The notes under the pieces are model-generated. The model saw only the letters and a program-made list of their open reading frames with translations, was not told where the DNA came from and ran no database searches. A program made the translations under genes and the position numbers. DNA of 59,327 nucleotides from Thermoplasmata archaeon (GTDB lineage: Archaea > Thermoplasmatota > Thermoplasmata > RBG-16-68-12 > JAFNFQ01). Where the stretch lies: the NCBI GenBank assembly GCA_041489255.1, contig JBGPQV010000018.1, positions 1-59,327 of the forward strand. The letters are read 5' to 3'. Shown here piece by piece: positions 15,856 to 40,202 of this stretch (position 1 is its first letter; every line of letters begins with the position of its first letter).

Positions 15856-17556
15856 CTAGAAAAGGCCGCTGACCTTCCCCTTGTCGTCTATGTCGACCTT
15901 CGTGCCCGCCGGTTCGGTCGGCAGCCCGGGCATGGTCCTCATCTCCCCGCAGAGGGCGTAGAGGAAACCCGCACCCGCCGAGACCTTGACGTCGCGGACG
16001 GTGAGGCGCCAGCCCTTCGGCGCGCCTTTCAGCCTAGGATCGTCAGATATGGAGAGGTGCGTTTTGGCCATGCACACGGGGAGCTTGTCGAACCCGTGCT
16101 TGCTGAGCCTCCTGATGCTCGTCTCAGCCGTCGTCGTGTAGTCGACGCCGTCGGCTCCGTAGATCTTCAATGCAATCGTCTCGATCTTCTGCTCAATCGA
16201 TGCTTCGAGGGGATAGAGGAATTCGAATTCGCTGCGCTTCTCGCATGCCCTCATGACCGCCTTCGCGAGTTCGAGGCCCCCGTTCCCGCCATTCGCCCAG
16301 ACCTCGTTCGTGACCGCTTCGTCGGCGCCTGATTTCATCGCCTCTCTCTTCGCCACCTCGATCTCCGCCTCCGTGTCCGCCGTGAACCTGTTCACCGCGA
16401 CGACCACGGGAACCCCGAAGAGCCTCATGTTCTCGATGTGCTTGGCCAGGTTGACGCATCCCTTCCTGACCGCCTCGACGTTCTCCTTCCCGAAGATCGC
16501 CTTGTCATAGGGCTTGCCCGGGCGCAGCGAATACGCCCCGCCATGCTCCTTCAGCGCCCTGATTGACGCCACGATCACCACACAGCTCGGCCGGTATCCC
16601 GCCACCCTGCATTTGATGTCCATGAACTTCTCCGCGCCGCAGTCCGCGCCGAACCCGCTCTCCGTGACGACGTAGTCGGCCAGCTTCATCGCTACCTTGT
16701 CCGCCAAGATCGAGTTGTTGCCGTGCGCAATGTTCGCGAACGGCCCCGCGTGGATTATCGCGGGATCGTTCTCGAGAGTCTGCACCAGGTTCGGCTTGAT
16801 CGCATCTCTGAGCAGGGCTGCCATCGAACCCGCGCACTTCAGGTCCTCCGCGGTCACCGGCCGCTTATCATACGTCCATCCGAGGACTATCCTGCCGAGT
16901 CGCCTCCTCAGGTCCTTCAGGTCCATGGCCAGCGCCAGTATCGCCATCACCTCGGACGCGGCGGCGATGTCGAATGAGGCCTGCCTCGGGACCCCGTCCT
17001 CCCTGCCGCCGAGACCTATGACGACGTTCCTCAGCGACCTGTCGTTGACATCGACGCACCTGTTGAACGTTATCGAGTGCGGGTCGATGCCCAGCTTGTT
17101 CCCGTGGAAGATGTGATTGTCGATGAAGGCGCTGAGGAGGTTGTTGGCCAGCGACACCGCGTGCGTGTCGCCGGTGAAATGGAGGTTGATGTCCTCCATT
17201 GGGATGACCTGGGAGTAGCCGCCTCCAGTCGCCCCGCCCTTGATGCCGAACACGGGGCCCATGGAAGGCTGCCGCAGGGTGGTGATCGCCTTCTTCCCGA
17301 GGCGGTTCAGGGCCATGCCCAGTCCTATGGTGGTTACGGTCTTCCCCTCGCCGAGCGGCGTCGGCGTGATTGCGGTGATGAGAATAATCTTGCCTTCCGG
17401 TTTGTCCTTCAGCCTCTTGAGGACCTCCATGCAGCATATCTTTGCCTTGTACGCTCCATAGGGCTCGATCTCGTGCAGGTGGAGCCCGGTCGACCGGGCG
17501 ATGACTGAGATGGGCTTTATCCTGGCTTCCTGCGCGATCTCGAGGTCCGACTTCAC
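15856..17556 (-). CDS. fhs: Formate--tetrahydrofolate ligase
   Basis: TPTPLGEGKT, GIKGGATGGGYSQV, HAGPFANIAHG, PVCMAKTHLS, TMPGLP. Confidence 0.97.
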   Translation of the reverse strand: MKSDLEIAQEARIKPISVIARSTGLHLHEIEPYGAYKAKICCMEVLKRLKDKPEGKIILITAITPTPLGEGKTVTTIGLGMALNRLGKKAITTLRQPSMGPVFGIKGGATGGGYSQVIPMEDINLHFTGDTHAVSLANNLLSAFIDNHIFHGNKLGIDPHSITFNRCVDVNDRSLRNVVIGLGGREDGVPRQASFDIAAASEVMAILALAMDLKDLRRRLGRIVLGWTYDKRPVTAEDLKCAGSMAALLRDAIKPNLVQTLENDPAIIHAGPFANIAHGNNSILADKVAMKLADYVVTESGFGADCGAEKFMDIKCRVAGYRPSCVVIVASIRALKEHGGAYSLRPGKPYDKAIFGKENVEAVRKGCVNLAKHIENMRLFGVPVVVAVNRFTADTEAEIEVAKREAMKSGADEAVTNEVWANGGNGGLELAKAVMRACEKRSEFEFLYPLEASIEQKIETIALKIYGADGVDYTTTAETSIRRLSKHGFDKLPVCMAKTHLSISDDPRLKGAPKGWRLTVRDVKVSAGAGFLYALCGEMRTMPGLPTEPAGTKVDIDDKGKVSGLF

Positions 17557-17597
17557 TCCAGATGTCCCCCTGATGGCGGTGCAGAAATCGACGGAGC

Positions 17598-17633
17598 ATA
17601 ATAATCATTGCTCAGGCAAAAACGAAGGGATAA
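17598..17633. repeat. Left att site: 13-bp core plus inner arm AAAACGAAGGGATAA (17619-17633)
   Basis: Core is identical to 39232-39244; arm is a 13/15 inverted match to 39210-39224. Confidence 0.85.
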
Positions 17634-18929
17634 CTAGGGTTTCAGGACTTGGTCTGAGCCTACAGACGATACGACTGCCTTCATGCGGACGTTTTCCAAG
17701 CGGGAAGCCATCTCCATCGTGCCAATCTCCCCGGCGAGGTAACTCCGCATGACCTCCGTAGCCTCCTGTGGTATGCCTTGCACCAGGTTCACCGAGGGCT
17801 GCTCCAAAAGACCAAGCGGTCCATTTGGGAGCTTCAACGCCTGCTCAGCAAGCAGATCGTCCATGGCGGGCGCATCATACCAGTCTCGCATGGAATCGCC
17901 CGACGCGGCGTCATGGCCCATCAGGACCGCCGACGCTGCTTTCGAGAGACCCGCTCGACGGCAAGCACTTGCGACCCAATGCCTGAGATCGACGGGTCTC
18001 AGTTTCGGCAGATCCCATTTCGACCTGAGGCGCTCCCATTGAACGGTAAACATGCTCACGCCGCACTCCCTGGCGGGCTCGACGTGTCCCACGCAACTTC
18101 TCCATGGGATTATCGGGTGTTCCGGATAGGCCGGCACGATCTTTCGCCATTCCTGCAGGGCTTGGACCACATCCGGGGGCAACCGTGCCGCAACTCCGGC
18201 ATAGGTCTTGAAGTCCTCAGCCGAGCCGTCCGCAATGATGGACGTGGGCGTGCCGTTCTCATCATGCTGGACGTTTCGCCATTTCAGATGGCGCACGTGT
18301 GAAGGTCTCCATCCATGCTGCGCGATGAGCAGGAAGAGCAACCGCAGATAGGCGTCGGTTTCGCGCGAAATCGCTTCTCTCCATTTCCGCACATCATCAT
18401 CCCTGGGGCTGTTGCGACGTCTCGTGGGTGGTAGTCTGCCGATGTCCGTGTCCTTGTTTATTGGCCAGGGTAGGCCGATGCCGTTAGCCCAGACGCTCTT
18501 GAGTGTTGCGAGGTACCAGCGCCATGACGGTTTTGTCCTAGTCTGTAGGAACTGAAGGACTATCTCCTTGCCCTTCTTGGCCGCCAACTGCCGCCTTGAG
18601 TACTGTTCGAAGTCCACGCGGTTGGCGAAGGTATGGAAGGCCCGCTCGTAATCCTGCTGCGCCGATGGCTTCAGCCTCGCCCTCGTGTTCTGTCGGAAAC
18701 GCTCCAGAATGTCATTGACCTTCAACGGAAGATCACTGTCAATCTGTGCTTTCGCAAGTCCGTCCTTGTCCCCATTCCCGAGGGAGTTCGCCCCGGCGGT
18801 GCCGAGGTCTCGGGTTTCTTCTTCATTTCCATCCTCTAGACGTGAGTTTTCCCCTACCTCACGACCATCGACGGGAGGGCTCTCCGAGGATATAGGGGTT
18901 GCCATAACCAAACGGTTCTGGCTAGCCAT
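17634..18929 (-). CDS. Tyrosine recombinase/integrase
   Basis: HGWRPSH (catalytic R), FKT (K), PVDLRHW, LMGH, DWY (Y). The stop codon abuts the att arm. Confidence 0.85.
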   Translation of the reverse strand: MASQNRLVMATPISSESPPVDGREVGENSRLEDGNEEETRDLGTAGANSLGNGDKDGLAKAQIDSDLPLKVNDILERFRQNTRARLKPSAQQDYERAFHTFANRVDFEQYSRRQLAAKKGKEIVLQFLQTRTKPSWRWYLATLKSVWANGIGLPWPINKDTDIGRLPPTRRRNSPRDDDVRKWREAISRETDAYLRLLFLLIAQHGWRPSHVRHLKWRNVQHDENGTPTSIIADGSAEDFKTYAGVAARLPPDVVQALQEWRKIVPAYPEHPIIPWRSCVGHVEPARECGVSMFTVQWERLRSKWDLPKLRPVDLRHWVASACRRAGLSKAASAVLMGHDAASGDSMRDWYDAPAMDDLLAEQALKLPNGPLGLLEQPSVNLVQGIPQEATEVMRSYLAGEIGTMEMASRLENVRMKAVVSSVGSDQVLKP

Positions 18930-19608
18930 TCGACACCCCCGAAACGTCCTTCTCGCTATGGGTAGTCGTTTCTAATGCCGAAACGACGCTTTTGGCAAGC
19001 CGCCTTGCGCTCGTCGGGGGTATCCCCGTCCTAGTAGTTATCTCGGCCCATGAAAGCCCCTGCGCTCGCATCTCCACGATCCGCGCAGACTGAATGCCGT
19101 AATCCTTCCGAGGGCGGTTCGGCGGCTTGCCGCTCCTTGTCTTCCATTCCCCGGTGTCCTTGTGGACCTCCCGGAGACGGCTGAAACTCGCCTTGATTCT
19201 CTCGCTCTTCCGCTCCGATTCCATCTTGGCGAAGGTTGCGACCAAGGCGATCGCGGCCTCTGCGAACGGGCCTGCGCTGTCCAGGTATCGCTCCATGTAG
19301 CTGACCCATTTGACATTCTGCTTGGTCAGTTCGTCGAGCATTTTCAAGGTGTCCAGTGCCCCTCGCCTTTCCACGCGGTCCAATGCCCAGAATACCAGGA
19401 TGTCGTACTTCCGTTGGTGTGCCCCGAGCAGGGCCATCTCCAATTGGGGCTTGTGGATTTCCCTGCCCCTGACCGCCTCGTCGACGTACTCCTGCGTGAC
19501 ATCCCAACCGCGTTCCGAGCAGAAACCCCTCAGCTGCACTAGCTGGTTCTCCGTCTCCTGCCGGTCGGTCGAGACCCTCGCATAGAGGGCGGCCCTCATG
19601 TCAGTCAT
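18922..19608 (-). CDS. Serine recombinase (resolvase/invertase) with C-terminal HTH
   Basis: AALYARVSTDRQ, WALDRVER, MESERKSERI, GLSWAEI HTH. Confidence 0.92.
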   Translation of the reverse strand: MTDMRAALYARVSTDRQETENQLVQLRGFCSERGWDVTQEYVDEAVRGREIHKPQLEMALLGAHQRKYDILVFWALDRVERRGALDTLKMLDELTKQNVKWVSYMERYLDSAGPFAEAAIALVATFAKMESERKSERIKASFSRLREVHKDTGEWKTRSGKPPNRPRKDYGIQSARIVEMRAQGLSWAEITTRTGIPPTSARRLAKSVVSALETTTHSEKDVSGVSNG

Positions 19609-21922: not shown

Positions 21923-22179
21923 CAGGTCCCCTCCTTGCCCGCGCCCAGGATGAGGTCCACGTTGGCCAGAATCACAGCCCTTGTCCGCTTCCACCTCTCC
22001 TCCCTGACCTGCTCAACCGTCTTACCCTCGGCGAGCGCACGCGCGGCATCGACGTGCTTGCACGGCCTATCCCTGTAGTAGTTGTCCCGGCATGTGCATC
22101 CGTCCGTCTCGACGTCCACGATGTAGTCTCCGACCCTGTAGACGCTGCCGCCGACGTGCTCCGCCTTCAGGTCATCCAC
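21922..22179 (-). CDS. SWIM zinc-finger protein
   Basis: CTCRD-x6-PCKH. Confidence 0.8.
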   Translation of the reverse strand: MDDLKAEHVGGSVYRVGDYIVDVETDGCTCRDNYYRDRPCKHVDAARALAEGKTVEQVREERWKRTRAVILANVDLILGAGKEGT

Positions 22180-22859
22180 TCGATGCTCACCCCCGAGTCC
22201 GACACGACCATGGCGGCTATCAACGACCCGAACCCGAACTGGCGGGAGCGGTGCGCCTTGATGTGGATGAGGGTCCTGCCGGGCCCCTTCTCGACGACGA
22301 AAGGCTCCAGGAGCTCCTTGGCCCCGAACTGCGCCTTATCGCCGAAAGCCCTGTGGGGCTTGCCCTGCGCCTCCGCCAGCTCGCTTATCGGCTGGTTCGT
22401 CACGATCGCCTGGCCGCCCCTCACGTATGCCCATTCCTTGAGGCTGCCGAACATCCCTATCATGTCGAGGAGCGCCCCGCCCCGCTCACGGAGGTCCATC
22501 CTTGAGAACCTCGCCAGGACGGGGAAGCCTATCGAGTCGATCACGACCAACTCGGGACCCGTCTTGCCCTTCTTCGGCAGGGCGTGTATCAGGTCGGACA
22601 GCTCTTTGTAGAGGGGGATGTACCGATATGCGTCCCCGAGGACTGCCGCCTGGGACCGCGTCAGGTTCCTCTCGGTGTCGACGTAGAGGACGGAGGCGTT
22701 GCCCTTGATGGCGTCGTGCGCGACCTTGTGAGCGAACGTCGTCTTGCCCGTCCCGGTGTCCCCGAACAGCTCGACCACGTCGGCGTCCTCGAAGACCCGC
22801 TTGAGCTCCTTGTAGTCATTCTCGCTGTGCCCTTTCAAATCCTGCTGAGTCGATTGCAT
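22167..22859 (-). CDS. RadB-like RecA-superfamily ATPase
   Basis: ELFGDTGTGKT, LYVDTE, LVVIDSI, IVTNQ; start at MQSTQQ after GGAG. Confidence 0.85.
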   Translation of the reverse strand: MQSTQQDLKGHSENDYKELKRVFEDADVVELFGDTGTGKTTFAHKVAHDAIKGNASVLYVDTERNLTRSQAAVLGDAYRYIPLYKELSDLIHALPKKGKTGPELVVIDSIGFPVLARFSRMDLRERGGALLDMIGMFGSLKEWAYVRGGQAIVTNQPISELAEAQGKPHRAFGDKAQFGAKELLEPFVVEKGPGRTLIHIKAHRSRQFGFGSLIAAMVVSDSGVSIEWMT

Positions 22860-22863
22860 CTTT

Positions 22864-23001
22864 TCACTCTCCTTTTGTCTCATGCGAAGGAGCGTCATCG
22901 CCCGGCCTCGGCTCTTTGATGGCCTTGCGGTCGGGCCTCCGAGAAGCTGGAGGGCGGCCCATGCTCCGGGCCCGGCGGGGCTTCGGATAGGGGCGCTTCA
23001 T
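22864..23001 (-). CDS. 45-aa basic peptide (below the ORF-track cutoff)
   Basis: MKRPYPKPRRAR...; fills the gap between coupled genes exactly. Confidence 0.35.
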   Translation of the reverse strand: MKRPYPKPRRARSMGRPPASRRPDRKAIKEPRPGDDAPSHETKGE

Positions 23002-23754
23002 CTAACCGACCTCCTCCCTGCCAAGATGGGCCTCCAGACAATCGGGGCAGCGTTTGCCGCTGTCACCGTCTGGGCAATCCTTGAGGTGACTTCGGTTGAA
23101 CAGTAGGCCGCAATCCACGCAACTCTCGACGACGCCGGCAGCCTCGGATTGGAGCGGGAAGGGGCGGTAGGTCTGAGCGGACGTGACCGCCCCCTCGATT
23201 ATCTCGACGAGGGACTGTTCGAGCCCGCCGAGTATCCCGTTGAGCCGATCGCGGGTGTCCTGCACGAGGGAAAGAGCCTTCGCGTATTCCCGCCGGACCC
23301 ATTCGTCGTCTGGAGGGGAGTCGAGGCGCTGCATAGTCCCGGCCGTGAGAGCCTTCGTCCCTTCATCCGATGAATTTAGGCATGGCTCTGTCGGGGCTTC
23401 CCCGACTTCGATGTATTCCAGACACCGGGAGCAGTTGGCCGCATAGACGCCGGTTGCCCGGTTGCGGAACACCATGACTCTGCTGTCACACTTCGGGCAT
23501 GTGGCAATCTTGAAGTTGGGGACCGGTGGATCTGCTCCGTCTTCCCCAGGGAGTCCGACCCCGCCATAGCCCTCGCCCTTGCATGAAGCACAGGGCGTCA
23601 ACCCATCATCCTGTACGACCTCGCCGACGCCGTGGCACTCTGGGCAGACTGAGCGGCCGTTCAGGTTCCGCCCGCACGTCCTGCAGAAGCCGGTGCTATC
23701 CATGGGTGAGCCGTCATGGGGGCAGCGTGTCTCGGCGGAGACCTCGGCGATCAT
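23002..23754 (-). CDS. Multi-zinc-finger hypothetical protein
   Basis: About eight CxxC-type knuckles. Confidence 0.6.
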   Translation of the reverse strand: MIAEVSAETRCPHDGSPMDSTGFCRTCGRNLNGRSVCPECHGVGEVVQDDGLTPCASCKGEGYGGVGLPGEDGADPPVPNFKIATCPKCDSRVMVFRNRATGVYAANCSRCLEYIEVGEAPTEPCLNSSDEGTKALTAGTMQRLDSPPDDEWVRREYAKALSLVQDTRDRLNGILGGLEQSLVEIIEGAVTSAQTYRPFPLQSEAAGVVESCVDCGLLFNRSHLKDCPDGDSGKRCPDCLEAHLGREEVG

Positions 23755-24542
23755 CAGCGGTGCCTCCTTGAGCGGGGGATGGGGGGTTCGTTGTCGGTCG
23801 GGTCCTCCGTCGTCATGAGCTCGCCTTTCAACCGCTCCCTCGCCAACTCGACGAGGGGGTCTGGGTCAGATTCGAGGGGGTGACCTGCCTCTGAGAGCTT
23901 CGACATGATCGCATTGACCCGCCTGACTTCCTTCGGCCCCGCCTCCGCGGAGACGAGACCAGCCGGTAGGCGGTCGTGAAGCTCCTGGGCAGTTATGAGC
24001 GAGCCATCGGAGGAAAGCCCCCACCGTCTGTTGCGTTTGAAAATCCAAAGCCGGGCGAGTGCCACCATGCCTCTGGCGTGAAGTCCAGCGGCCAATGCAG
24101 AATAGGTCCGCTGGAAGTCCTCGTCGTCGTCAGGGGGCAGGATGTATTGGAGGCCCGAGGCAACGAACCGTGACGTTGCTTCCGCGAGGGGTATCAACGC
24201 TTCGACGACCATATCCTCACGCCGGAACCGCCCTCGAGTGTCCCTGACCTCATCCTTGGTGAAAGTGACGAACATCTCGTCTATCTCGATGCCCCGCAGG
24301 GGGACCTTGGCGCAGTTCTCGTATCGAGCTCCACATGCCTTGCAGACGTGCTCCGCCAAGACGGTCGGTCGGCCGCAACCGCAGACGATCTTAGGCTTTG
24401 CCCATCGGTCCAGTCGTCCCTGCCAGACATGGACCTTGTTTCTGATGCCGCCGAAGACCAGGACGATCTCGATGGGGCGTGGATATGCTGCGGTATCGCC
24501 GAACAAAGCAGCTCCCGGCGGGCTCTGACTCTGCCCGTTCAT
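23754..24542 (-). CDS. Divergent Ku-like DNA end-binding protein
   Basis: Collinear with prokaryotic Ku: LVFGGIRNKVHVW (cf. ISFGLVNIPVKLY), VCKACG, LRGIEIDEMFVTFTKDEV (cf. VKGYE..YV.LT.EEL), YILPP..TYSALAAGLHARGMVALARL (cf. YYL.P..AY.LL..AL...GKVAIAR). Confidence 0.6.
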   Translation of the reverse strand: MNGQSQSPPGAALFGDTAAYPRPIEIVLVFGGIRNKVHVWQGRLDRWAKPKIVCGCGRPTVLAEHVCKACGARYENCAKVPLRGIEIDEMFVTFTKDEVRDTRGRFRREDMVVEALIPLAEATSRFVASGLQYILPPDDDEDFQRTYSALAAGLHARGMVALARLWIFKRNRRWGLSSDGSLITAQELHDRLPAGLVSAEAGPKEVRRVNAIMSKLSEAGHPLESDPDPLVELARERLKGELMTTEDPTDNEPPIPRSRRHR

Positions 24543-31197: not shown

Positions 31198-31488
31198 ATG
31201 CCCAAGAAGACAGGGAGAGGAACGGGAGTGAACCGCGACACTGCTAGGGTAGTATTCAAAGTGAACGTCTTCAAAGATGAGGACGGATATTTCGTGGCAT
31301 ACTGTGAGGAGATACCGGGATGCGCGTCCCAGGGCAAGACCCTCAAGGAAGCGCAGAGGAATTTTCTGGAAGCACTGATGGGATGTCTTGAGACCCTCGC
31401 AACGATGACGCCTCGCATAAAGACGAGGCCGACCTCAGGACCGCCGGTGACGACGAGCAGGATCGCCCTGACAGCAACTCCAGCTTAA
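31198..31488 (+). CDS. hicB: HicB-family antitoxin
   Basis: DEDGYFVAYCEEIPGCASQGKTLKEA. Confidence 0.9.
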   Translation: MPKKTGRGTGVNRDTARVVFKVNVFKDEDGYFVAYCEEIPGCASQGKTLKEAQRNFLEALMGCLETLATMTPRIKTRPTSGPPVTTSRIALTATPA

Positions 31489-33010: not shown

Positions 33011-33865
33011 TCAAGCAATGTCCTGGACGGCCTCTCCTGATGCCCCCGGCTCCCCGATCAGTCTCGGCGTCCTTGAGGGAAACCGACTGTTGCGCCTGGC
33101 GGCGCAGACCTGTTGAACCTCGTTGAAGTCCCTCAGGCTCACGATTGCCGGATGATTCCCGTGCCTCAGGATTCCATCCCATTCGAGGACGCCGGCATAG
33201 ACGGGATTATGCAGGATGTGGGCCAGCCCCATCTTCGACCATTCCCTCCCATTCCTCGTCGTAATTCCCCTTATCCAGAGGTCCGTCCTCAAGTCCTCGA
33301 AGGATGCGCCCTCGCAGTATCGCGTGAACATCAACCTCACGGCCGCGGCTTCCGATTCCTCGATGGTCAGGCTGCCGTCTTTCAACCGAAAGCCGTATGG
33401 AACCGGCGAGCCGAGGAACCCGCCCCCGCTCTTGGCCTTCTGGCTCATCCCCATATAGACGCGCTCGCCTATTTGCTCGCTCTCGAGCTGCGCGATCCTC
33501 TGGATGATGTCGACGACGAAGCGCCCCATCGCGGTGCTGGTGTCGAGCGATTCGGTGGCGGAGACGAAATCCTTGCCCCATTTCTGGAGGTCGTCCATCA
33601 TCTCCATGAAGTTACGCGCGTTCCTGTGAATGCGGTCCATCTTGATGACGAGGATAGCGTCCCACTTCTCCCTGTCTTGCATCATCCTCTGATAGGCGGG
33701 CCTTTTGACGTTTCTCCCCGAATGCCCCTCGTCCACATAGGCGTCGGCTACCGTCCATCCCCGGGCCATGCAGTAGGCCAGTAACCTCTCTCGCTGCGCG
33801 TCAAGAGAGAAGCCTTCCTTGGCTTGGTCATCAGTGGAAACCCTTGTGTAGATTGCCGCGATCAT
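33011..33865 (-). CDS. Serine recombinase with recombinase domain (short LSR-type)
   Basis: AIYTRVSTDDQAKEGFSLDAQ, KMDRIHRN, PYGF, ILHNPVYAG, HPAIVS; no obvious Zn-ribbon/coiled-coil domain. Confidence 0.92.
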   Translation of the reverse strand: MIAAIYTRVSTDDQAKEGFSLDAQRERLLAYCMARGWTVADAYVDEGHSGRNVKRPAYQRMMQDREKWDAILVIKMDRIHRNARNFMEMMDDLQKWGKDFVSATESLDTSTAMGRFVVDIIQRIAQLESEQIGERVYMGMSQKAKSGGGFLGSPVPYGFRLKDGSLTIEESEAAAVRLMFTRYCEGASFEDLRTDLWIRGITTRNGREWSKMGLAHILHNPVYAGVLEWDGILRHGNHPAIVSLRDFNEVQQVCAARRNSRFPSRTPRLIGEPGASGEAVQDIA

Positions 33866-38030: not shown

Positions 38031-38333
38031 CTAGTCATAGGCGTGGTCGTGGTGCTCGAAGCGCACGAGGACGACCTTCCTACCCTCGACCGTCCACATG
38101 AGAACCCACGGGCCGATGTGGACGCCGTAGCACCCCTTGAGTTCATACTTCTTCGGAGTCCCCATATCGAAGGGGTTTCGCAGGACCTCCTCGAGCTTCT
38201 CCTGAATCCGCTCCAGCAGGATGGGGTCCTTCTTCTTGAGCTTCTTGAAGGCTCTCTCTAGCTTGGGAGGAATCACCAACTCGTACCCATTTCGACCGGG
38301 CCCGGCCAAAGACACCGCCTCCTCACCGGACAC
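38031..38333 (-). CDS. RelE/YafQ-family toxin
   Basis: RAFKKLKKKD..LKGCYGVHIGPWVLMW..FEHHDHAY. Confidence 0.85.
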   Translation of the reverse strand: MSGEEAVSLAGPGRNGYELVIPPKLERAFKKLKKKDPILLERIQEKLEEVLRNPFDMGTPKKYELKGCYGVHIGPWVLMWTVEGRKVVLVRFEHHDHAYD

Positions 38334-38349
38334 CGGGATGGGCCAGCCC

Positions 38350-39000
38350 TCACAGACTGCCCATGTAGGCTTCGAGTTCCTTCTCGTTCCTTATCGTCTT
38401 GCCCTTTCCCGCTCTTGCGTCGGCGATGTTCTTTCTAATCTCTCGAACTGCCTCGCCGCTCTTCAATTCCCTCCAGCAGTTAGCGTAAGTGTCGAAGTCG
38501 ATCAACTCGCCGTACTTGCTGCTGCGGAACGGGTAGGTGTCCTTTGACGCCTCGACAAGGTTCTTGGTCTTCACGGAGTACCATTCCTTGATCACCTCGT
38601 CCAGGATGTGCATCTCTTCCTTGGGGAGGTCGACCGAGGTCTGGGGCATCTTTGCCTTGTAGAACTTCGCATCCCGGCCATCCTTGGTTTTTCCGCGTTC
38701 CATGCCGATGTCGGGATGGACGCTATCGGCAATAATGGCGACTCCCTGACTCCAGGGGCCATAGTTCCAATTGACGAAATCCGCCCTGGAGAGGCGCCTG
38801 CCCAGTTTCTCAATCGCCCTCAGCTCCGCCATGTAGTAGAGCTTCATGAGGCGGCTCGCGGTGACCCGATAGTCCCTGGGATGGCGGAAGACGAGCCAGG
38901 TGACTATGTCCTTGACTCTCTTGGCGTCTTCTGCGGAGAACTCCGTCTGGGGCGGAAACTCGGAGAACTTGATGCCGATCTCTGCCCTATCGTTCTCCAT
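38350..39000 (-). CDS. Panacea (DUF4065/SocA) antitoxin
   Basis: LMKLYYMAE...DFVNWNYGPW motif; lies upstream of the RelE-family toxin. Confidence 0.85.
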   Translation of the reverse strand: MENDRAEIGIKFSEFPPQTEFSAEDAKRVKDIVTWLVFRHPRDYRVTASRLMKLYYMAELRAIEKLGRRLSRADFVNWNYGPWSQGVAIIADSVHPDIGMERGKTKDGRDAKFYKAKMPQTSVDLPKEEMHILDEVIKEWYSVKTKNLVEASKDTYPFRSSKYGELIDFDTYANCWRELKSGEAVREIRKNIADARAGKGKTIRNEKELEAYMGSL

Positions 39001-39209
39001 GCTTTCGTTCTCCTCCTGCGTCCATAATCAACCGCTCGGGTATATAGTGATTGGCAACCCTTTCTCAGCGTGAAGACAGGGGGATGATGAAAGTGCCCTC
39101 CCGACGCGACTCGCCGTCGGGCTGTTCGAAAAAGGAAAGGTGCCCCGCCCTTTCAAGCGGGGCTTGGGGGGAATGGGGACGGGATGGACCAGTGAGCGTC
39201 CGACAGTGT

Positions 39210-39244
39210 TTATCCCTCTGTTTTCGGCGGGATAATAATCATTG
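39210..39244. repeat. Right att site: inner arm TTATCCCTCTGTTTT plus 13-bp core
   Basis: Matches the left att site (17598-17633). Confidence 0.85.
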
Positions 39245-39320: not shown

Positions 39321-40202
39321 ATGGTCGCGGAAATAATAGACGGTACCAGGATCGCCGAGAAGATGCGGGCCGAGATGAGGGCGAAGATCGCCGAGCTGAA
39401 GAGCAGGGGGATAACACCTGGTCTGGCGACAGTCCTCGTCGGCGACGACCCTGCCTCGAAATCCTATGTGGGCATGAAGGGCAAGGCATGCGTGGAGATG
39501 GGGATGTTCTCCGTCGGGGAGAGATTACCCGAGCAGGCGACCGAGGATGAGCTCCTCAGGGTGATCGAGAGGCTGAATGAAGACCCGCGAATCCATGGGA
39601 TCCTCCTCCAGCTGCCCCTGCCGAAGCACATCAATGAATCGAGGGTCATCTACGCAGTCTCTCCGGAGAAGGACGTGGACGGCTTGCACCCGGTGAACGT
39701 GGGGAGGATGATCTCGGGCGAGCCGGGCTTCGTCCCCTGCACGCCGCGTGGAATCCAGGAGCTGCTCATCAGGAGCGGTCACAGCCCCGAGGGCAAGCAC
39801 GTCGTCATCGTCGGGAGGAGCAACCTCGTCGGCAAGCCGCTCGCGAACATCCTCATCCAGAAGAAGAAGGGTGCCAACGCCACGGTGACCGTGTGCCACA
39901 CGGGGACGAAGGACATCGCGAAGCACACGAGGGCGGCGGACATCATCGTGGCGGCGGCGGGCAGACTGAACATGATCACGGCGGACATGGTCCGGGAAGG
40001 CGCGGTCGTCATCGACGTCGGCACGAACAGGGTTGACGACCTTACCGCCAAGAGGGGATACAGGCTAGTCGGCGACGTTGACTTCGAGGCGGTCAGGCAG
40101 AAGGCGGGCGCGATCTCGCCCGTCCCCGGCGGCGTCGGGCCGATGACCATCACGCTGCTCCTCGCGAACACGATAGAGGCGGCGGCCAGGACTGTCCGCT
40201 AG
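39321..40202 (+). CDS. folD: Methylene-THF dehydrogenase/cyclohydrolase
   Basis: PGLATVLVGDDPAS, QLPLP, KDVDG, PCTP, GRSNLVGKP, PVPGGVGPMT; GGAGG RBS. Confidence 0.97.
   Translation: MVAEIIDGTRIAEKMRAEMRAKIAELKSRGITPGLATVLVGDDPASKSYVGMKGKACVEMGMFSVGERLPEQATEDELLRVIERLNEDPRIHGILLQLPLPKHINESRVIYAVSPEKDVDGLHPVNVGRMISGEPGFVPCTPRGIQELLIRSGHSPEGKHVVIVGRSNLVGKPLANILIQKKKGANATVTVCHTGTKDIAKHTRAADIIVAAAGRLNMITADMVREGAVVIDVGTNRVDDLTAKRGYRLVGDVDFEAVRQKAGAISPVPGGVGPMTITLLLANTIEAAARTVR

Follow-up and report, generated by a model that had tools for sequence, protein, structure and literature searches.

The 58-bp imperfect palindrome formed by joining the two ends of a 21.6-kb integrative element in a Thermoplasmata archaeon is most probably the attP of that element, recombined by the tyrosine integrase (Int) encoded directly beside it. 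Its inverted arms would act as extra binding sites, and comparison of related sequences suggests that the layout is a hallmark of the entire integrase family. The window, i.e. the whole stretch of DNA that was analysed (59,327 nucleotides), carries the element in its integrated state, with the following features:

17611-39244: integrated element, 21,634 bp with one core copy counted, between fhs and folD
15856-17556, minus strand: host flank, fhs (formate-tetrahydrofolate ligase)
39324-40202, plus strand: host flank, FolD
17598-17610: core, left copy (attL side), 41 nt upstream of the fhs start codon; single copy at empty sites
39232-39244: core, right copy (attR side), 79 nt upstream of the folD start codon
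17619-17633: int-proximal (P′) arm, minus strand reading TTATCCCTTCGTTTT, beginning right behind the int stop codon and in line with the half-site consensus of the family
17611-17618: spacer of 8 nt between core and P′ arm
39210-39224: distal (P) arm, plus strand reading TTATCCCTCTGTTTT, the inverted partner of 17619-17633
39225-39231: spacer of 7 nt between distal arm and core
17634-18929, minus strand: tyrosine integrase (Int) of a Thermoplasmatota family, 431 aa, abutting the P′ arm
18922-19608, minus strand: small serine recombinase, 228 aa, with a Resolvase domain and a C-terminal HTH region, overlapping the int start by 8 nt
33011-33865, minus strand: LSR-type gene, 284 aa (302 in the open frame), whose only domains are Resolvase and Recombinase

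The boundaries of the element are exact and its insertion was precise. The core, ATAATAATCATTG, is a 13-bp direct repeat present in exactly two copies in the window, and none of 100 shuffles gave two matches. In a genome of the same genus (G001), the fhs flank is 97% identical through the core and then continues into the folD side, with one core copy and nothing between. Run X9 contains a 1,498-nt contig that matches positions 17170-17610 with a single difference and then the 30 letters following 39244, and run X6 a 1,763-nt contig that is identical to 17170-17610, the match ending at 17610 and 1,322 nt further following; the integrated form is present in runs X1 and X4. Direct repeats at both ends and a one-copy empty site in relatives, the two marks of a site-specific integrative element, are thus both found here. 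The contigs of these four runs, apart from 36 loose ends, showed no attP junction belonging to the window's element; as contigs drop rare forms, this says nothing on excision.

The element carries genes for a DNA methyltransferase, ParE, SocA/Panacea, HicB-like and Ku-like proteins and ATPases. Since PHROGs gave no virion genes in it, it is not called a provirus. Toxin-antitoxin-type genes lie at its right end (38031-39000), where a ParE-like toxin stands beside a SocA/Panacea-domain protein, and a HicB-like antitoxin gene is found mid-element (31198-31488). A protein resembling the Ku70/Ku80 beta-barrel (23754-24542, Pfam E 2.7e-08) is encoded beside unannotated genes and an AAA/Sak4-like ATPase (22167-22898).

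Joining the ends yields an attP of 15+7+13+8+15 = 58 bp with its axis at the A7/T8 step of the core. The arms, TTATCCCTCTGTTTT and TTATCCCTTCGTTTT, agree at 13/15 positions and differ at 2/15, and they lie 14-29 bp from the axis. The preliminary description, which had reported a 58-bp imperfect palindrome with 13/15 inverted arms and an AT centre inside the core, was reproduced in every one of these points. Dyads of this quality are rare: among random junctions made from the window, 22/20,000 had a 15-nt dyad with at most two mismatches centred in a 13-mer, and 19/20,000 random contiguous segments of the window had a comparable one, making chance an unlikely origin. Throughout the 2.74-Mb genome (41 contigs, the window being one whole contig), the two arms are the sole copies of a degenerate pattern searched with at most one mismatch.

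The symmetry is a property of attP. A reconstituted attB gave no dyad even at up to four mismatches, and on the host side no arm-like match with up to three mismatches was found within 150 bp of either core. In symmetry profiles, attP matches at inner positions 1-5 and again at outer positions ~13-32, attB at the inner positions only. An arm-like match at 39400-39414 lies inside folD, and as the same codons differ in G001 it was taken as chance. Within the element, ~120 nt inside the right end, a third arm-like sequence (39073-39087) matches at 12/15 positions and is inverted relative to the distal arm. None of the other six elements described below has such a third copy, and it was dropped as a family feature; in the window's own genome (G000) it is unexplained or chance.

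The enzyme encoded next to the site is, as judged from its structural model, a divergent tyrosine recombinase, and its gene (17634-18929) abuts the P′ arm, in agreement with the adjacency noted earlier. Against Pfam PF00589, Int scores 26.6 bits, the gathering cut-off being 27.1, and most of its homologues have a precomputed PF00589 match. The AlphaFold model (pLDDT 84.2) aligns with XerA (4a8e) at a VIA-align Z of 17.7 and with Cre, lambda Int, XerH and Tn1549 Int at Z 13-15 (lambda Int Z 13), over residues ~60-345/376. Across 46 homologous sequences, R208, K241, R316 and Y351 do not vary at all, and H339 is kept in at least 90%. Alignment with XerA 4a8e pairs the R, K, R-H and G-H motifs of the two proteins. 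Because the XerA alignment stops before Y351, we infer rather than read from it that this residue is the nucleophile. The gene product hence combines the catalytic fold and core-binding domain with the R, K, R, H/W and Y residues by which the tyrosine recombinase superfamily is recognised. Beyond these parts, residues 1-60 are modelled as disordered, and C-terminal helices (~380-421, ~45 residues) extend past the ranges aligned to known recombinases. The model contains no lambda-like N-terminal arm-binding domain, and no DNA-binding domain for the arms was identified in Int.

Int belongs to a family of ~420-aa proteins whose source annotations are Methanomassiliicoccales, Thermoplasmata and Thermoplasmatota, the best identity being 54%. 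A profile search recovered the family in 13/401 genomes of the class and at 79 metagenome loci. As a single-protein query, Int found no relative in genome contigs or viral contigs, nor did a profile scan of the viral contigs; a second genome search with the family of G077 added no genomes. By tblastn at E ≤1e-3, Int had no match in 72,556 plasmid records or in 50,697 phage and virus records, among which the presence of SNJ2 is unconfirmed.

Homologues at ~40-55% identity lie in elements with the same att layout. To find the ends of such elements independently of the arms, direct repeats were searched within 90 nt after the int stop codon, offsets being counted from the first base of that codon. 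This search placed the cores at +26 in G000 (13 bp), +28 in G077 (11 bp) and +29 in G103 (13 bp), the elements of the latter two measuring 25,227 and 11,038 bp. Each reconstituted attP has inverted arms starting from the int stop codon (13/15 matches in G000, 13/16 in G077, 18/21 in G103), and the corresponding attBs are without arms. Two metagenome elements, L071 (8,213 bp) and L080 (10,774 bp), gave reconstituted dyads of the same layout, although these are not independent of the dyad because their far ends came from an arm-based search; the same search with reversed arms returned two matches in 42 loci. The two other far-end matches among the four obtained in these 42 loci, L064 and L075, were rejected as 8-9-bp repeats off the expected core position and without extended arms.

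Circular episomes, in which the dyad can be read intact on the contig without any reconstruction, add two more cases. L052 is an 8,059-bp episome (contig of 10,820 bp with a perfect terminal redundancy of 2,761 bp), and L096 and L097 (contigs of 7,843 and 8,017 bp) are circular permutations of an episome of ~7.88 kb; in each, an intact dyad directly follows int. Intact dyads were found at 3/73 loci versus 18/3,040 random positions.

Both halves of the site are available in seven elements only, five integrated and two circular (G000, G077, G103, L071, L080, L052 and L096/L097), and all seven have the dyad layout. The preliminary description had itself named arms that are not conserved in homologous elements as a finding that would count against it, and the site passes on this point. 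The order is invariably int stop codon, 14-21-bp arm, spacer of a few bases, A-tract/T-tract core, spacer and inverted arm. Dyads span 50-66 bp, identity cores 9-13 bp, and the arm sequences vary between elements while being inverted within each. For the int-proximal half-site, 54 non-redundant loci gave the consensus stop-AGTTTA-N7-GATTTCG-N7-AAAnnnnTTT. The dyad axis lies on the centre of the A-tract/T-tract core in G000, G077 and G103, where the axis dinucleotide, placed to within ~1 bp, is palindromic (A|T, G|C and A|T, respectively). On the basis of these sequences, a compact symmetric attP is characteristic of this uncharacterised archaeal tyrosine integrase family of the Thermoplasmatota/Methanomassiliicoccales type.

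In the homologous element of G001, the far end is absent from the contig and the repeat search gave a 9-mer only, and the contigs of G198, G317 and G015 stop inside their elements. Just after the int stop, L044/L045 (G198, G317) carry a 14-nt direct repeat, TTTATACAGCCAAT, twice and 32 nt apart, together with a perfect 10-bp palindrome, CCAATATTGG, unlike the usual half-site.

The family data also bear on whether the element might instead be a transposon, with the arms as terminal inverted repeats and the 13-bp repeat as a target-site duplication. In the integrated state the arms do form an inverted pair, each set 7-8 bp inward from one copy of the direct repeat. Yet on the circular episomes both arms surround a single core, and the core itself follows a consensus shared across the family, an A-tract and a T-tract around a short centre, and keeps a constant distance to int, which is unexpected of a target duplication. 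Moreover, the inverted repeats start off the element ends and no transposase was found in the element, leaving the transposon reading with next to no probability.

The next question is which recombinase acts on the site. The preliminary description had left the integrating enzyme ambiguous between the adjacent tyrosine recombinase and the LSR-type gene, a view that the wider comparison does not sustain: the dyad goes with the tyrosine integrase family, including two genomes with no Resolvase-domain gene at all. Whole-genome counts of Resolvase-profile matches stand at zero in both G077 (98% complete, in one contig) and G103 (88% complete), versus 10 in G000 and 7 in G001, so the dyad layout is independent of a serine recombinase. 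Since the same design recurs beside related tyrosine integrases, a tyrosine rather than a serine enzyme is likely, and Int is very probably the integrating enzyme of the element, to the extent that this can be judged from sequence.

If the LSR-type gene (33011-33865) integrated the element, the dyad would be a serine-integrase attP cut at the central AT. Such sites, as described for one integrase, are pseudo-palindromes of ~50 bp with 25-bp half-sites and a zinc-ribbon motif at bp 16-24, near the distance of the arms (PMC3783163). The gene product does have both a Resolvase (PF00239, 134.8 bits) and a Recombinase domain (PF07508, 61.2 bits), the combination expected of this type. However, the match of the 284-aa protein to the serine-integrase profile phrog_95 is confined to 88-364 of its 651 positions, and the protein had no zinc-ribbon family match at E ≤0.001 and no coiled-coil match. 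It therefore falls short of a large serine integrase, which has a zinc-ribbon with an inserted coiled coil and ~450 aa or more, and it lacks the very parts on which the structural LSR model of site choice relies (PMC3783163). Three paralogues elsewhere in the genome (73, 57 and 43% identity; open frames of 295-425 aa) make the gene look like a separate multi-copy unit. Trios of side-by-side Resolvase genes with open frames of ~300-425 aa recur at G000:C28:14922-17872, G000:C25:26748-29659 and G001:C36:48962-51873, one member of each being akin to the window's LSR-like gene.

The att sites themselves also speak against an LSR. The dyad is present in genomes without any serine recombinase, and attB has no copy of the arm, shifted or unshifted. 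A serine-type attB, i.e. a dyad with the outer motif shifted ~5 bp inward, was not found in the reconstituted attB, whose symmetry is confined to the inner five positions. Ghosh and colleagues reportedly concluded in 2003 that the orientation of serine integration depends solely on the central dinucleotide; by this rule, a palindromic axis dinucleotide such as those of G000, G077 and G103 would not set orientation for a serine integrase. The LSR-type gene, put forward earlier as a serious candidate, is for these reasons an extremely improbable one.

The 228-aa serine recombinase encoded at 18922-19608 was absent from the preliminary description. It could conceivably use the dyad as its crossover site, either for integration or for multimer resolution of the circle. 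Its gene overlaps the int start and recurs beside int in relatives, full-length partners of this kind retain a catalytic YxRVS-type motif, and a palindromic AT at the centre can occur in the crossover sites of resolvases. Against this, the dyad occurs in genomes with no Resolvase-domain genes and on an episome whose int partner is a small tyrosine recombinase, and many resolvase-type partners have lost the catalytic region. Resolvase half-sites, furthermore, reach only ~14 bp from the centre, whereas the arms lie at 14-29 bp. A role of the small serine recombinase at the crossover is consequently very unlikely.

With Int as the enzyme, the proposed mechanism runs as follows. The site would be the attP of the 21.6-kb element, and Int (17634-18929) would recombine it with an A/T-rich attB core of 13 bp between fhs and folD. 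The strands would be exchanged within the 13-bp identity, where a short overlap without palindromic sequence would sit on the dyad axis; this overlap probably falls within the non-palindromic middle of the core, and TAATCA is one way to place it. The inverted 15-bp arms, present in attP only, would be extra protein-binding sites that mark the element's own site and aid assembly of the recombination complex. Core half-sites of Cre, Xer and lambda span 11-13 bp, and because the arms are farther from the axis than this, ordinary core binding cannot explain them. Int might bind them by a region that belongs to neither its core-binding nor its catalytic domain; alternatively, a second pair of Int protomers might do so and then capture the bare attB. 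Arm binding by Int, the cleavage positions and directionality are all points that we infer.

What reads the arms is less certain than which enzyme catalyses. That Int itself does so is moderately favoured: the half-site consensus is unchanged whatever gene lies upstream of int. Alternatively, Int would catalyse while a small HTH protein encoded upstream of int reads the arms as an architectural or directionality factor; this protein is the 228-aa serine recombinase here and a resolvase-derived or other HTH protein elsewhere. One blastp cluster of resolvases and resolvase-derived proteins accounts for the gene upstream of int in 24/75 loci, which were not de-replicated; its members include L041:12347-13066, L049, L056, L073, L077-L081, L091 and L106 and often overlap the int start. 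Pfam Resolvase was matched by 9/52 upstream proteins submitted, plus those of G000 and G001, and short resolvase-like HTH segments lie upstream of int in L052 and L071. In 144-aa upstream forms the N-terminal catalytic serine region is gone while the E-helix and HTH are kept, which suggests a DNA-binding role for these resolvase-derived proteins. There is also a precedent in SNJ2, where a co-transcribed wHTH protein (Orf3) has been proposed to bind the P/P′ arms (PMC5861418).

Nevertheless, the consensus is the same whether the upstream gene encodes a resolvase, a resolvase remnant, an HTH_23 protein, a small tyrosine recombinase or a Prim-Pol, Int being the constant partner. In L096, for instance, the gene upstream of int encodes a 220-aa protein with a Phage_integrase domain, and the dyads of G077, G103 and L096 occur without resolvase-like sequence (tblastn, E ≤1e-3). 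Arm reading by the upstream HTH protein is accordingly rather unlikely, and recognition by Int remains the preferred reading. A bolder and still speculative proposal, which we consider possible but on balance doubtful, is that the tyrosine recombinases of the Int family have come by convergence to use sites built like those of large serine integrases: a symmetric 58-66-bp attP with two-part half-sites read by Int, an attB core of ~10-13 bp, possibly in promoters, and resolvase derivatives without a catalytic domain as directionality or architectural factors.

Among characterised systems, the SNJ2-type integration modules of haloarchaeal pleolipoviruses come close in several respects. As far as these modules are described in the sources cited, they also have an archaeal tyrosine integrase that stays intact after integration and an identity core of 13-14 bp (PMC5861418; PMC8371274), and they share a core at a fixed short distance after the int stop, small proteins co-transcribed with int and P/P′ flanks that are conserved among relatives (PMC5861418). 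They differ in their targets: the SNJ2 core is found within tRNA genes, in their 3′ portion (PMC5861418), as opposed to the intergenic core found here. The terms 'inverted repeat', 'palindrom' and 'imperfect' are absent from the main text of the SNJ2 paper, to which, as distinct from its supplements, this statement applies (PMC5861418).

Lambda attP resembles the present site in having extra sites in attP only, a short-core attB and a 13-15-bp identity that holds the overlap, yet in the outline given by a review it measures ~240 bp, has asymmetric arm sites far from the core and relies on host bending factors (PMC8371274). Here, by contrast, the whole site spans 50-66 bp, with two arms only that are strictly dyad-symmetric and abut the core region. 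The LSR attP, as reported for the A118/LI integrase, is a pseudo-palindrome of similar size with two-part half-sites and an outer element 15-25 bp out, in which attP and attB differ (PMC3783163). The present site departs from it in that the partner is a tyrosine recombinase, the identity core comprises 9-13 bp versus a required dinucleotide and attB is wholly without the outer element. With loxP, dif and FRT, finally, it has in common, following their published description (PMC4111918), a short asymmetric centre that both partners share and that inverted repeats enclose. In those systems, however, the two partner sites do not differ and their repeats directly border a spacer of 6-8 bp, whereas here the long repeats occur in attP only and are separated by ~7 non-conserved bases from the A/T core.

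In the main text of the reviews and papers searched, whose supplements may list the family, the dyad layout is not described. In its main text, a review of archaeal tyrosine recombinases mentions neither Methanomassiliicoccales nor Thermoplasmata, and it states that archaeal serine recombinases have never been fully investigated (PMC8371274).

Taken as a family trait, the layout turns a one-off palindrome into a rule and settles which enzyme serves the att site. It is also of practical use: because attP follows int immediately, the int gene alone suffices to predict the ends of the element carrying it, and a defined site of ~60 bp with a core of ~13 bp is available to try as an integration tool in archaea without genetic systems. 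Were the convergent site indeed read by Int, it would amount to a self-contained, short-site integration system for archaea. On the mechanistic side, it poses the question of a tyrosine recombinase using sites 14-30 bp from the crossover.

The A/T-rich cores are located where archaeal promoter elements are expected, the window's core lying 41 nt upstream of the fhs start, and the integrase family may target promoter (TATA-like) sequences. A core-like box in G001 (L018:2785-2797) likewise sits ~24-36 nt upstream of tRNA-His (2821-2895).
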